Shown: positions 18,001 through 36,000 of the stretch, piece by piece
Position numbering within the stretch: the stretch's first letter is position 1
Layout of the letters: every line of letters starts with the position of its first letter
DNA from: Escherichia coli
GTDB lineage: Bacteria; Pseudomonadota; Gammaproteobacteria; Enterobacterales; Enterobacteriaceae
Assembly: GCF_002854065.1 (NCBI RefSeq)
Contig: NZ_CP024150.1
Reading direction: 5' to 3' (one strand)
Length of the DNA stretch: 64,000 nt
Made by a program: the position numbers

Positions 18001-21000
18001 TATCCGTCGCCCCAGCGCGACCTACTTTGTCCGGGCCATTGGCGACTCGATGAAAGATATGGGTCTGCACTCCGGCGATTTAATGGTTGTCGACAAAGCC
18101 GAAAAACCCATGCAGGGGGATATTGTCATCGCGGAAACAGACGGCGAGTTCACCGTTAAACGCCTGCAGCTTAAACCCCGAATCGCCCTGCTGCCGATGA
18201 ATCCCGCCTACCCCACCCTCTACCCGGAGGAACTGCAGATATTCGGCGTGGTGATGGCATTCATCCATAAGACGCGGGGTATGGACTGATGTTCGCTCTG
18301 GCTGACGTCAACAGCTTCTATGCGAGCTGTGAAAAGGTGTTTCGTCCGGACCTGCGTAACAGGCCCGTTGTGGTGCTCAGTAACAACGATGGTTGCGTGA
18401 TCGCGCGCAGCGCCGAAGCGAAACGACTGGGCATTGAGATGGGCGTCCCCTGGTTCCAGCTGAAGACGGCACAATTCCCGGAACCGGTCATCACGTTCTC
18501 GAGCAATTACGAACTCTATGCGTCTATGTCAAACAGGGTAATGTCTCATCTCGAGGAACTGGCGCCATGCGTGGAGCAGTACAGCATCGACGAGATGTTT
18601 CTGGATATTCGCGGCATAGACAGCTGCATTAATTTTGAGGACTTCGGCCGACAGCTGCGTGAGCACGTGCGCTCCGGTACGGGGCTGACAATCGGCGTAG
18701 GGATGGGACCGACCAAAACGCGGGCTAAAAGCGCACAATGGGCGTCTAAGGAATGGCGGCAGTTTGGGGGCGTGCTTGCTCTGACTACTGGAAATCCAAA
18801 GCGAACGGAGAAACTGTTGTCACTGCAACCAGTAGACGAAATCTGGGGGGTTGGCCGCAGGATCGCAAAGAAACTGAGCACAATGGGGATAACAACTGCA
18901 CTGCAGCTGGCGCGCACGAACTCTATATTTATCAGGAAAAATTTCAGCGTTGTGCTGGAGAGAACCGTCCGAGAACTCAACGGAGAATGCTGTATTGCAC
19001 TGGAGGAAGCACCGCCCCCAAACAGCAGATAGTCTGTAGCCGGTCCTTTGGGAGCGCGTCACGACATATGAGGCCATGCGCCAAGCCGTCTGTCAGTACG
19101 CTGAGCGTGCAGCTGAAAAGCTGCGGGGCGAGCGCCAGTTCTGCAGGCATATCGCCGTTTTTATGAAAACGTCACCACTCGCAGTCAACGAACCGTATTA
19201 CGGGAATGTGGCCAGTGAAAAACTGCTCATCCCCACGCAGGATACACGCCCCCTTCATCGGCCAGTTCACGATAACGATAAAATGTATCCCGCGAAACAC
19301 CCATGATTTTACAGGCTTTTGATACATTGCTGAGTTCTTCAGCCAGATTGAGCAAACCGGTTTTGTGTTTGATGACGGGATTGGTAGTATGAAGCATGGG
19401 AGTTACCTCATGTTTTGTATAAGGATTCGACATCCATATCAACACTGGTAACTCTCAACCTTTCAAGGCCATGTGTCAGATCAAGTCGCGACTAATACAC
19501 CTATGGCTACGCAATCTTTCTCGCACAGAGACAGGCCATCCTGGATATGTGGCACAAAATTGCGCTAGCAGGGAGCGCACCATCTGAACAGATAGCCGCT
19601 GACCTCGTTTACTTTAAAAATATTCTCGAACCTTCCCGTTGATAATGAACGTATTCAATTTTGTCGACCCACAGCACAAACCGTGAGTCTGTTCAGAATT
19701 GTTTTTTGGACAGGCGAGGGGTTGGACAAGCCCGACGGGCGCGTCAGCCTGTCACATCACGGTATAACCAAAACAAGAGGAAGCCCCCCTTGTTTTGCAA
19801 AAACGCCCATCTTACAGACCGAGGGACGACTAGGTTTTGTTTATCCACGCATGGTCCTCTTCCCACGTGAACATCCATTTGCGCACCGGCCCGGCCATCA
19901 CGTTGAGGTAGTAGCTGTCATACCCCGCCATGGTTGCCACCGGGTGGTAGCCCTTCGGCACCATCACCACGTCACGGTTGTAGACCGCCATGCATTCATC
20001 CAGCGTTCTGTCGTCAGTGTAGACCCGCTGCATGCAGAACCCCTGCTCTGGGTTGAGTCGATGGTAATAGGTCTCCTCCAGATACGTCTCCAGGGGTTGA
20101 TTATCCGTATCGTGCTTATGGCTCGGGTACGAACTGGTGCAGCCTTCATTGGTCCAGACCTCCACCACCAGCAGGCTGTCAGCCGGTTTGTCTTCCGGCA
20201 GAATATTGTGCACATAGCGCTGGTTATGGCCTTTGCCGCGCGCTTCAGCGTCTATATCCTGCGGTGCAATCAGCCGCGTCGGCCAGCTACCTTTACCCGG
20301 AGCGGCGCAAACCGCCAGTTCCAGCTTCGTGAGCGCCTTCACCTGCACCGTTTCCTGCGGGGTAACGTACACTGCCCACGGCTTGATGCGCTCGAATGGG
20401 CTCATCCGCTCGCCAATATCGTTAAACTGCGCGGAGGGCGTGCTGATGGAGGCGCGCCCGGCGACCAGTACCAGACAGCGCTCTTCGCTGACGGCGGGCA
20501 GCGTCAGCTGCTGCCCCTCCTGCAGCTCATAGGCCTCAAAGCCAACATATCCCCACCCAGCGCATTCCGGTGTGACGGACTGGGTCCGCCCTTCATCGTT
20601 CGGCTGTTGCCAGCGTGATAGCAGACGTGACATGTCACCTCCTCAGATAAGCCCGGCGTCGCGCGCCAGACGGCTCAGGTTGTTATACCCCAGACGGGCA
20701 TAGGTCAGCGGATGGGCAATCGCCGGATCCTGCTCCGCCTCCACCACCAACCAGCCGTGATAATTCTGCGCTTTCAGCAGTTGCATGATCGGCGGATAAT
20801 CCACGCAACCGTCGCCCGGCACGGTAAACACGCCGCTCAGCACCGCATCGAGGAAGCTGGTTTTGCGGTTTTTGACATCCGCCAGCACGTCGGCACGCAC
20901 GTCTTTGCAGTGAACGTGGTTGATGCGCGACGCCCAGCGCTGCGCCACCGTCAGCGGGTCGGCCCCGGCAAAGGTCAGGTGACCGGTGTCCAGCAGCAAC

Positions 21001-33000: not shown

Positions 33001-36000
33001 TGATCAAGGATGGATTTTTATGTTAACAGCCAACAACACTGACGCAGCGTGCGCTATTAAGGATTTTCAGGCGATGAAATGAGTGAAGTATCTGTTTCAT
33101 TTTTGCTGCCAGATGGATGGCCAACATTTAAAAGACGCGGTTTTGTGTTTAGAATAATAAGACTGTATTTGGGGGATAACATGACGACAGCAACCAGCCT
33201 GAACGAACTGCAGCAGCAAATCCGCGATCGCTACGATAGCCTGAGTAAGAGGCTGCAGCAGGTCTCCCGCTATGTACTGGATAATACGAACAGTGTGGCG
33301 TTTGATACGGTTGCGGTCATTGCCGAGCGTGCCGATGTGCCGCCCTCGACGCTGATCCGTTTTGCCAATGCCTTTGACTTCACCGGCTTCAACGAGATGA
33401 AACAGCTGTTTCGTATGAACCTGGTGGAGGAGACCGCCAGCTACAGCGATCGTGCGCGGCTGTTCCGCGAAATGGAGAGCGAAGCCGTGCCGGAAACGCC
33501 GCTCGATATCCTGCAGGAGTTTGCCCGCTCGAACGCGCAGGCGCTGCAGCAGCTGGCCGCCCGCGCCGAACCGGAGATGCTGGAGCGCGCCGTACAGCTT
33601 CTGGCCGCCGCGGACACCATCTACATCGCCGGACTGCGCCGCTCCTTTAGCGTCGCTGCTTATCTCACCTATGCTTTAAGCCACCTGGAGTGCCGCCCAA
33701 TTCTGCTCGACGGCATGGGCGGCATGCTGCGTGAGCAGATCAGCCGCATTAAGGCGCGCGACATTGTGGTGTCGATCAGCTTCTCGCCGTACGCGGAAGA
33801 GACGGTGATGGTCAGCGAAACCGCCGCCAGCGTCGGCGCGCGGCAGATTGTGATTACGGACAGCCAGATTAGCCCGCTGGCGACATTTAGCGATCTCTGC
33901 TTTGTGGTGAAAGAGGCGCAGGTGGATGCGTTTCGATCTCAGTCGGCAACGCTGTGCCTGGTCCAGTCGATTGTTGTAGCACTGGCATATAAATTGGGTG
34001 AAGTGGTCAACAAAAACTGGCCACCACGTTAGAGTTTTTCCAGTATCGGTTTTCCGATTCGTTTGGTGGTAACCCACCATTATATTCGTGCGGCCTGAGT
34101 GCGCTGTAATATCCAACGATATAGTCCGTTATTGCGTGGGCTGCATCGCTGAAGCTTACGTAACCTGTCACTGGCATCCATTCGTTCTTCAGACTCCGGA
34201 AGAAGCGCTCCATTGGGCTGTTATCCCAGCAGTTTCTGCGACGGCTCATACTCTGCCTGATCCGGTATCGCCACAGTAACTGCTGGAACTGCCTGCTCGT
34301 ATAATGACTGCCCTGATCGCTGTGGAACATCACCCCGACGGGTTTACCGCGAGTTTCCCATGCCATTTCCAGCGCTTTCATGGTGAGTCTGCTGTCCGGC
34401 GAGAACGACATTGCCCAGCCCACTGGCTTTCTTGCGAACAGGTCGAGAACAACGGCGAGATACGCCCAGCGTTTACCTGTCCAGATATAGGTCACATCAC
34501 CGCACCACACCTGGCTGGGCTCCGTTACGGCGAACTGTCGCTCAAGATGATTTGGGATAGCAACGTGCTCATGACCGCCACGCTTATACCGGTGAGTCGG
34601 CTGCTGGCAACTGACCAGTCCCAGCTCTTTCATGAGCCTGCCAGCAAGCCAGCGTCCCATCGGGTAGCCTCTCTGGGTTGCCATTGTGGCGATGCTTCTT
34701 GCTCCGGCCGAACCGTGGCTGATGCCATGTAGCACAAGCACCTGACTGCGTAATACGACCCGTCTGCCGTCTGGCTTTTCAGGACGGTTTTTCCAGTATT
34801 TATAGCTGCTGCGATGAACCCCGAACACATGGCAGAGAGTAACCACAGGATAACGCGCCCTGAGTTTCCCCATTATCGAGAACTGTTCAGGGAGTCTGAC
34901 ATCAAGAGCGCGGTTGTAGATTCAATTGGTCAACGCAACAGTTATGTGAAAACATGGGGTTGCGGAGGTTTTTTGAATGAGACGAACATTTACAGCAGAG
35001 GAAAAAGCCTCTGTTTTTGAACTATGGAAGAACGGAACAGGCTTCAGTGAAATAGCGAATATCCTGGGTTCAAAACCCGGAACGATCTTCACTATGTTAA
35101 GGGATACTGGCGGCATAAAACCCCATGAGCGTAAGCGGGCTGTAGCTCACCTGACACTGTCTGAGCGCGAGGAGATACGAGCTGGTTTGTCAGCCAAAAT
35201 GAGCATTCGTGCGATAGCTACTGCGCTGAATCGCAGTCCTTCGACGATCTCACGTGAAGTTCAGCGTAATCGGGGCAGACGCTATTACAAAGCTGTTGAT
35301 GCTAATAACCGAGCCAACAGAATGGCGAAAAGGCCAAAACCGTGCTTACTGGATCAAAATTTACCATTGCGAAAGCTTGTTCTGGAAAAGCTGGAGATGA
35401 AATGGTCTCCAGAGCAAATATCAGGATGGTTAAGGCGAACAAAACCACGTCAAAAAACGCTGCGAATATCACCTGAGACAATTTATAAAACGCTGTACTT
35501 TCGTAGCCGTGAAGCGCTACACCACCTGAATATACAGCATCTGCGACGGTCGCATAGCCTTCGCCATGGCAGGCGTCATACCCGCAAAGGCGAAAGAGGT
35601 ACGATTAACATAGTGAACGGAACACCAATTCACGAACGTTCCCGAAATATCGATAACAGACGCTCTCTGGGGCATTGGGAGGGCGATTTAGTCTCAGGTA
35701 CAAAAAACTCTCATATAGCCACACTTGTAGACCGAAAATCACGTTATACGATCATCCTTAGACTCAGGGGCAAAGATTCTGTCTCAGTAAATCAGGCTCT
35801 TACCGACAAATTCCTGAGTTTACCGTCAGAACTCAGAAAATCACTGACATGGGACAGAGGAATGGAACTGGCCAGACATCTAGAATTTACTGTCAGCACC
35901 GGCGTTAAAGTTTACTTCTGCGATCCTCAGAGTCCTTGGCAGCGGGGAACAAATGAGAACACAAATGGGCTAATTCGGCAGTACTTTCCTAAAAAGACAT

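Follow-up and report, generated by a model that had tools for sequence, protein, structure and literature searches.

We analysed a stretch of 64,000 nucleotides of Escherichia coli DNA (NCBI RefSeq assembly GCF_002854065.1, contig NZ_CP024150.1), here called the window, which carries an island of genes for inositol catabolism (iol) (Table 1). This island is very probably a piece of the Enterobacter cloacae chromosome with a complete iol pathway, which was captured once and then spread on plasmids of E. coli. A preliminary description of the window had recognized a set of iol genes of high guanine-plus-cytosine (GC) content on a plasmid-like backbone, bounded on both sides by insertion sequences (IS), and had proposed that it is recently acquired chromosomal cargo.

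Replicon, composition and donor of the island

The window from 19000 to 35000 is identical (100%) to NZ_AP027791.1 (p2017.06.05CC_1), a circular plasmid of 109,780 bp from E. coli in human faeces, Viet Nam, which is typed in PLSDB as IncFIA/IncFII and conjugative; the window is the reverse strand of this record, the record position being 82311 minus the window position. The backbone hitherto called plasmid-like is in agreement that of a conjugative plasmid and not a chromosome. In the GC profile the region between 20 and 32 kb stands at about 0.60, against 0.44-0.55 on both sides. For the exact island the value is 59.9% against 47.5% for the remaining window, and the GC content at the third codon position (GC3) of the iol genes is 0.71-0.80; the composition is thus foreign to the backbone, as the preliminary description had claimed. 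E. cloacae itself has the iol cluster at about 60% GC between chromosomal flanks of 52-58%, and the high GC content is therefore a property of the cluster and not a signature of the donor genome.

For identification of the donor, iol loci of E. cloacae and of other species were compared with the island. A total of ten E. cloacae loci align over 14,165 bp at 97.4-98.2% BLAST identity, and all the alignments stop at 19839 and 34003. In a multiple alignment nine of these loci show 98.3-98.5% identity to the island (without gaps), the loci differ among themselves by 0.9-1.9% over the island DNA, and the plasmid copy is placed within the diversity of E. cloacae, at its edge. The proteins of these loci are those deposited for E. 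cloacae subsp. cloacae ATCC 13047 (ADF63334.1 for IolB and A0A0H3CQ48_ENTCC for IolG); the IolG of the plasmid has exactly the latter UniProt sequence, which is present on 891 contigs including chromosomes of 5 Mb. The E. cloacae chromosomes, about 5 Mb in size, carry the same 11 genes in the same order at a fixed place beside guaB-guaA (guaBA), with hcp and tlde1 sometimes lying between the iol cluster and guaB-guaA. Among the representatives of other species, taken from a scan of 100,044 genomes, the identity to the island is about 91% for E. sichuanensis, E. soli, Lelliottia and another Enterobacter, 82-90% for the iol clusters of Citrobacter, and below 80% for Yersinia, Pectobacterium and others. 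The chromosomal iol cluster of E. coli, present in 43 of 5,426 complete chromosomes (about 0.8%, for instance in ATCC 8739), has the same organization over window positions 19838-33969, but it carries the native gene ends (IolR of 286 amino acids) and is only 88.8% identical, and therefore it is not the source. By these sequence comparisons the donor is the chromosome of E. cloacae sensu stricto, supporting the earlier idea of chromosomal cargo. The two marks of a genomic island, a deviant composition and an identifiable foreign source, are thus both found. A mosaic origin was also considered and rejected, as windows of 500 bp are evenly 96-100% identical to E. cloacae with the sole exception of an insertion or deletion in a spacer with repetitive extragenic palindromic (REP)-like units.

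The opposite direction, in which the cluster was first plasmid-borne in Enterobacter or another genus and reached the chromosomes by reverse transfer or from a shared mobile ancestor, is highly improbable. It would agree with the GC content of the cluster in E. cloacae, which is above that of its flanks, and with the absence of the exact IolD alleles of the plasmid from the sampled chromosomes. In contrast, the chromosomal cluster stays at one locus beside guaBA, the decrease in identity from about 98% in E. cloacae through about 91% in other Enterobacter and 82-90% in Citrobacter to the lower levels in Yersinia and Pectobacterium is what vertical inheritance would produce, the island on the plasmid falls inside the diversity of E. 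cloacae, and the terminal genes of the plasmid are truncated when compared with all the chromosomal versions.

Compared with the E. cloacae chromosomal cluster (for instance of ATCC 13047), which has the same order and content from iolR to iolB and identical IolG and permease proteins, the island differs in its plasmid location, in an IolR with nine IS-derived residues, in an IolB without its last nine residues and in one REP-like unit fewer. As a separate observation, the region just past iolR varies between E. cloacae strains (L003, positions 3167-4287; L002, positions 86-2961), the neighbours being hcp/tlde1 type VI effector genes, an unrelated IS3-family insertion or SIR2/HerA defence genes, and it looks like a local insertion hotspot. 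The IS3-family element near iolR in L003 was checked as a possible copy of the plasmid IS and rejected, giving no BLAST match to it.

Junctions of the island and the mode of its capture

At the right junction the native end of iolR, ...TTGGGTGAAGGAGAAAAATAA, is replaced after TGAAG by ...TGAAGTGGTCAACAAAAACTGGCCACCACGTTAG, which is the terminal inverted repeat of an IS3-family element. IolR has thereby lost the C-terminal GEK and gained nine residues, VVNKNWPPR, from the IS terminal repeat, giving 283 amino acids against the native 277. The altered C-terminus inside an IS end, suspected in the preliminary description, is evident both from the junction and from the comparison with homologues, whereas the start of iolR given there, 33079, should be replaced by the annotated start at 33181. 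The element itself begins with a TG-starting terminus (TGAAGTGG...), encodes rve domains on its orfB fragment, which lies on the strand opposite to iolR, and is annotated as IS3 family, in good agreement with an assignment to IS911. Thousands of E. coli records contain annotated IS911 or ISEc52 elements, to which it is 92.6-93.3% identical, while at least 95% nucleotide identity defines the same element in ISfinder, and we therefore refer to it as a truncated IS911-like relative. Copies at least 99% identical to it were found in only six records, all of them iol plasmids, indicating that this variant did not come from the IS pool of E. coli and presumably arrived together with the island. An IS30 divides it into two parts, whose continuity is visible in other plasmids. 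The nest of an IS911-like element and IS30 described earlier on this side holds.

The left junction lies inside iolB, where the native ...HAWINRDYPAESGG becomes ...HAWINKT, the last nine native residues RDYPAESGG being exchanged for KT and the protein being 267 instead of 274 amino acids long. This clipping was overlooked in the preliminary description, which had set the left boundary at an IS fragment plus a junction repeat. Both of these are present, but the IS481-family fragment does not abut on the island, a linker and a backbone remnant of together 336 bp lying between them, and the edge is inside iolB since the homology to the donor begins only at 19839. The backbone remnant is 88-90% identical to F-like plasmids of Salmonella, there downstream of umuD-parA-hyp-hyp (hyp, hypothetical gene), and in the Salmonella plasmid pSGSC3045-121 the series umuD-(umuC)-parA-hyp-hyp-repeat is contiguous. 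From this comparison the left flank is a plasmid backbone with an IS481-associated deletion and not an IS boundary of the island.

The two chimeric genes serve as markers of the captured module. A total of 176 contigs carry the chimeric IolR and 309 the chimeric IolB; every one of them bears an E. coli name. The longest measures 168 kb, and none of these contigs exceeds 200 kb or is a chromosome. The exact IolD allele of the plasmid is likewise present in 422 blocks of the collection, with none on contigs of more than 200 kb, and the search for a closer donor gave no candidate. Six complete plasmids carrying the island (91-168 kb; from pigs, human faeces and pooled pig faeces) have copies that are at least 99.9% identical. 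The surroundings are leading-region-type genes of F-like conjugative plasmids, such as psiA/psiB, ardA and umuDC. Nearly all the sampled contexts share one constant segment, which begins with umuD and extends through the first 454 bp of the IS, umuD being present in nine of ten left-flank contexts (absent in L109), and beyond this segment the neighbours differ. On the right they are ardA/umuDC/parAB or a methylase fragment with parM and colicin B/M genes, some copies carrying an inserted group II intron or IS110; on the left they are ssb-side genes with psiB/psiA, KlcA-type antirestriction genes or traG/dotM-like genes. Since both junctions are common to copies on varying backbones, and never on a chromosome, these sequences indicate that the module was formed once and then shuffled among backbones. 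As for the recent acquisition proposed earlier, the near-uniformity of the copies points to a recent spread, while the capture itself is not necessarily recent, because every E. cloacae strain sampled differs from the island by 1.5-1.7%.

How the capture took place can be proposed tentatively from the asymmetry of the junctions, with an IS end at iolR and no IS at iolB. Insertion of an IS911-like element next to the 3′ end of iolR, in an E. cloacae chromosome, would have come first; a plasmid would then have joined the chromosome via that element, and a faulty excision would have carried the adjacent iol cluster away. One junction would thereby coincide with the IS end, and the other would be an illegitimate one in the last codons of iolB; the module would later have moved between backbones by recombination in its flanks. 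F-prime and R-prime plasmids gain chromosomal DNA in this manner, by faulty excision of an IS-integrated plasmid. They resemble the island in having one IS-end junction, one IS-free junction and contiguous chromosomal cargo, the likeness being drawn from the junction anatomy and established knowledge of prime plasmids. Capture by IS-mediated integration and imprecise F-prime-like excision is thus a possible course, short of an even chance.

A composite transposon, formed by two IS911-like copies or two other IS with the left copy later deleted, appears improbable. The IS end adjoins iolR exactly, the truncated IS481-family element fused to a truncated umuC indicates a later deletion in the left flank, and in an independent iol capture on an IncFII plasmid of Yersinia ruckeri an IS6-family element lies directly at iolB, all of which would suit such a structure. 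In the window, however, IS911-like sequence is present only in the two parts on the right, the left junction passes from iolB through the linker into plasmid backbone and not into an IS end, the left side has a single IS remnant, of another family and 336 bp distant from the island, no target-site duplication is identifiable with both outer IS ends missing, and a left-hand IS was seen in none of the ten left-flank contexts sampled. A one-ended, ISEcp1-like capture was also rejected, since by eye the left end is unlike the terminal repeat of the IS911-like element and has no CA terminus.

Several points speak against the capture from E. cloacae and the excision course as proposed here. The nearest sampled donor is 1.5% off, and the island may have come directly from an unsampled lineage or from an intermediate replicon. 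Neither an E. cloacae genome with the IS at iolR nor an Enterobacter plasmid with the module was found, so that the capture model draws on the junction asymmetry only. The flanks are heavily rearranged, with truncation of the IS481-family element, of umuC and of the outer end of the IS911-like element, and with IS30 inserted, and a second IS could have been lost.

The iol pathway and its expected effect on the host

The gene identities were assigned by the curated cut-offs of NCBIfam, using the equivalog models for IolB, IolE, IolC-IolJ, IolG and IolD and a methylmalonate-semialdehyde dehydrogenase (MMSDH) subfamily model for IolA (Table 1). All of iolG, iolE, iolD, iolB, iolC, iolJ and iolA are present above these cut-offs, that is, the pathway is complete, and the gene list of the preliminary description (B, E, a bifunctional C, an extra dehydrogenase, an ATP-binding cassette (ABC) transporter, G, D, A and a divergent R) is correct. 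The three-part ABC importer and the RpiR/SIS regulator, for which no equivalog model exists, both have their orthologues in the E. cloacae cluster, and the periplasmic binding protein gives in addition a weak match to the model of the rhizopine-catabolism substrate-binding protein. The IolC-IolJ fusion consists of PfkB and DUF2090 domains and differs from that of E. cloacae at 4 amino acids; IolE has the E. cloacae length with 2 differences. The Gfo/Idh/MocA oxidoreductase scores below all NCBIfam equivalog cut-offs; its best solved relative, 5ya8, is a 'scyllo-inositol dehydrogenase with L-glucose dehydrogenase activity', and it is probably a scyllo-inositol dehydrogenase.

Table 1. Features of the island and its flanks in the window (positions are those of the window)
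Feature	Position	Strand	Evidence and remarks
umuD	17867..18289	+	Left limit of the module conserved across the plasmid contexts of the island; NZ_AP027791.1 annotation
umuC pseudogene, C-terminus missing	18289..19255	+	Truncated by the IS481-family fragment; identity to the window's intact umuC 77%
IS481-family 5′ fragment, 261 bp	19242..19502	-	One end and the first 51 transposase helix-turn-helix (HTH) codons; annotated as partial HTH protein
Plasmid-backbone remnant, 264 bp	19503..19766	+	3′ end of a small hypothetical gene and the ~110-nt leading-region-type repeat
72-bp linker	19767..19838		Hairpin with a 9-bp stem; may pair with the start of the repeat
Island	19839..34003	-	14,165 bp, by homology E. 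cloacae chromosomal DNA; homology ends exactly here in all relatives
iolB, 5-deoxy-glucuronate isomerase	19830..20633	-	267 amino acids; TIGR04378, 327.6 bits (cut-off 205)
iolE, myo-inosose-2 dehydratase	20643..21533	-	TIGR04379, 434.7 bits (cut-off 290)
iolC-iolJ fusion, 5-dehydro-2-deoxygluconokinase and 2-deoxy-5-keto-gluconate phosphate (DKGP) aldolase	21545..23449	-	NF047869, 936.9 bits (cut-off 600)
Gfo/Idh/MocA oxidoreductase	23462..24595	-	Best solved relative 5ya8, E 1.6e-98
ABC transporter permease	24604..25632	-	Ribose-type permease family matches; protein identical to that of E. cloacae
ABC transporter ATP-binding protein	25644..27191	-	Two ATPase domains; sugar ABC ATPase matches, annotation
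Periplasmic sugar-binding protein of ABC importer	27240..28169	-	RbsB-type matches
iolG, myo-inositol 2-dehydrogenase	28201..29187	-	TIGR04380, 444.9 bits (cut-off 355)
iolD, trihydroxycyclohexane-1,2-dione (THcHDO) hydrolase	29446..31371	-	TIGR04377, 931.8 bits (cut-off 715)
iolA (mmsA), CoA-acylating malonate/methylmalonate-semialdehyde dehydrogenase	31383..32888	-	TIGR01722, 684 bits (cut-off 448.5)
iolR, RpiR/SIS-family repressor	33181..34032	+	283 amino acids; divergent from iolA
IS911-like element (IS3 family), orfB-proximal end	33999..34914	-	Terminal repeat TGAAGTGGTCAAC... adjoins iolR
IS30, 1221 bp	34915..36135	+	Inside the IS911-like element with a 2-bp GT duplication; annotated as IS30-like element IS30
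IS911-like remnant, internal orfA piece	36136..36329	-	Annotated as partial transposase without both termini; outer IS end missing

The scheme of inositol catabolism is established for Bacillus and Salmonella (PMC9430895, PMC5349611), and with the equivalog-level identities it was used for assignment of the pathway. The ABC importer would take up myo-inositol, which IolG would oxidize to 2-keto-myo-inositol; after dehydration of this compound by IolE, IolD would open the ring to give 5-deoxy-glucuronate, and IolB would isomerize it to 2-deoxy-5-keto-gluconate. Phosphorylation and cleavage by IolC-IolJ would yield dihydroxyacetone phosphate and malonate semialdehyde, the latter being converted by IolA to acetyl-CoA. 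The second dehydrogenase plausibly channels scyllo-inositol into the same route. IolR would repress the iol genes in the absence of substrate, until an intermediate of the pathway builds up. Promoter-like hexamers are present on both strands of the iolR-iolA spacer, such matches being weak evidence, and a search of Rfam over window positions 17000-38000 gave no hit at the gathering thresholds, for instance no regulatory RNA of the Salmonella RssR type.

All 11 reading frames of the island are open, and the nine internal genes match those of E. cloacae exactly in length and contain no internal stops, the codon differences from E. cloacae being 127 synonymous and 33 non-synonymous. The two altered proteins are changed outside their conserved domains. 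IolR contains the RpiR HTH (HTH_6, residues 10-83) and SIS (residues 141-266) domains, and 11 IolR orthologues are near-invariant through ...LAY(R/K/Q)LG and then end in 2-14 unrelated, variable residues. A functional effect of the new IolR tail is unlikely, because the replaced tail is naturally hypervariable and lies beyond the SIS domain. The IolB of the plasmid still covers positions 2-246 of the 247 of its family model TIGR04378, although it has lost the semi-conserved R(D/E)YP motif, which speaks against an unimpaired protein. We infer that the clipped tails of both IolR and IolB are harmless.

The plasmid probably makes its E. coli host inositol-positive. The contrary view, that the cargo is a silent or decaying passenger with a defective IolR or IolB and no inositol phenotype from the plasmid, has a small chance of being correct. 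It would accord with the alteration of both terminal proteins, with the loss of the R(D/E)YP motif from IolB and with the literature, where a search for papers on plasmid-borne iol in E. coli found none. On the other hand, the 11 frames are all open, the changed tails are outside the family models and domains, and the six complete plasmids, from several countries and hosts, keep the island at 99.9% identity or more, while it occurs in hundreds of assemblies on differing backbones. Because of this conservation and wide distribution, a silent 14 kb is hard to reconcile with the data.

E. coli is classically inositol-negative. A conjugative plasmid with the whole pathway would change this diagnostic phenotype, and the host could gain access to a carbon source of which plant-fed guts contain plenty. 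Hundreds of public assemblies, several of pig origin, already contain the module. The interest of the finding is mainly ecological and epidemiological, a transferable and widespread inositol-positive phenotype being inferred for E. coli, and the island offers in addition a clean, datable case of a chromosomal operon of one genus turned into plasmid cargo in another. A further proposal, that the iol module is an actively selected niche trait spreading in pig-associated and diarrhoeagenic E. coli with free inositol as the driver, must be regarded as doubtful. Feed phytate together with added phytase would flood the gut with free myo-inositol, and the IS-derived tail of IolR might loosen repression and thereby spare E. 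coli the long bistable lag seen in Salmonella; the module may also hitch-hike with virulence or colicin plasmids, the present plasmid carrying a toxin (EcxAB) and a type IVb pilus as well.

Among the known systems, the island GEI4417/4436 of Salmonella enterica encodes the same pathway with an RpiR-type IolR and was also horizontally acquired (PMC6288124, PMC5349611, PMC10783015), but it is chromosomal, larger and differently organized, with an activator, ReiD, and a small RNA, RssR (PMC6288124, PMC9430895); the plasmid island differs from it also in its importer, which is an ABC system. The Y. ruckeri IncFII plasmid mentioned above, p17Y0159.1, carries its cluster in the same gene order with an IS adjoining iolB, but at 78% identity to the island it points to a different donor, in agreement with an independent capture. 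A plasmid of Salmonella carries a partial iol cluster at 83% identity. A description of plasmid-borne iol genes in E. coli was not found in the literature, and in a large genomic survey of iol clusters the word 'plasmid' does not occur; the sequences of the island are already public and machine-annotated. Since the pathway, this kind of island and the kinds of IS are all well known, the finding adds a case and not a principle. The spacer between iolD and iolG (window 29238-29504) contains REP-like palindromic units (CCCTCTCCC...GGGAGAGGG), and it is here that one unit present in the E. cloacae chromosomes is missing from the plasmid.

Flanking sequences and other features of the plasmid

The linker next to iolB gave no match outside the iol plasmids, being covered by no other plasmid, and a terminator-like hairpin lies on the minus strand at 19790-19775. 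The adjoining repeat of about 110 nt is present three times in the window, at the island junction (19646-19773), in the same orientation at 43427-43533 and inverted at 51056-51184, the copies outside the junction lying upstream of parA and of a resolvase gene. It contains a 10-bp inverted repeat (TCTGTTCAGAA...TTCTGAACAG) and is found in more than 1,700 enterobacterial plasmids. When modelled as single-stranded DNA, the 140-nt cores of the repeat fold no better than shuffled sequences, while the 336 nt from 19503 to 19838 fold modestly better (z about -2.4). The repeat may be a leading-region single-strand promoter (Frpo/ssi-like) or an operator. The IS481-family fragment is 92-95% identical to annotated IS481-family transposase elements on plasmids of E. 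coli and E. albertii.

On the right flank, the IS30 copy is about 94% identical to the IS30 of many plasmids. In the sister plasmids L095 (AP027831.1) and L100, a draft contig, the IS911-like element carries a group II intron (reverse transcriptase/maturase) at the site corresponding to window 34485/34486, instead of or in addition to IS30. On backbones of the colicin B/M type only the first 454 bp of the IS911-like element are left, followed directly by a fragment of a DNA methylase gene.

The window has umuDC twice, as a truncated locus at 17867-19255 and an intact one at 39334-41030 with about 77% identity between them, and ardA is also present twice, with one copy on each side of the island. 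These duplications suggest that the plasmid region joins the leading regions of two different plasmids.

The low-GC end of the window (31-36% GC), from about 59810 to 64000, contains the end of a type IVb pilus operon (record positions 9338-22501) with genes for pilin, secretin, PilO2, ATPases, prepilin peptidase and a LuxR-type regulator; the pilus is probably a colonization factor. Past the left end of the window by about 1.2 kb, at record positions 83486-84768 of NZ_AP027791.1 (positions 4487-5769 of L091), are two genes annotated as 'hypothetical protein' and 'cholera enterotoxin subunit B'. They match PDB entry 4l63 (E 3e-176 for chain A and 2e-64 for chain B), and an assignment to heat-labile enterotoxin was rejected in favour of EcxA and EcxB, an AB5 toxin of the metalloprotease type. 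The island and the toxin are therefore carried on one plasmid, and with the toxin and the colonization pilus on the same replicon, metabolic fitness and virulence could be co-selected.

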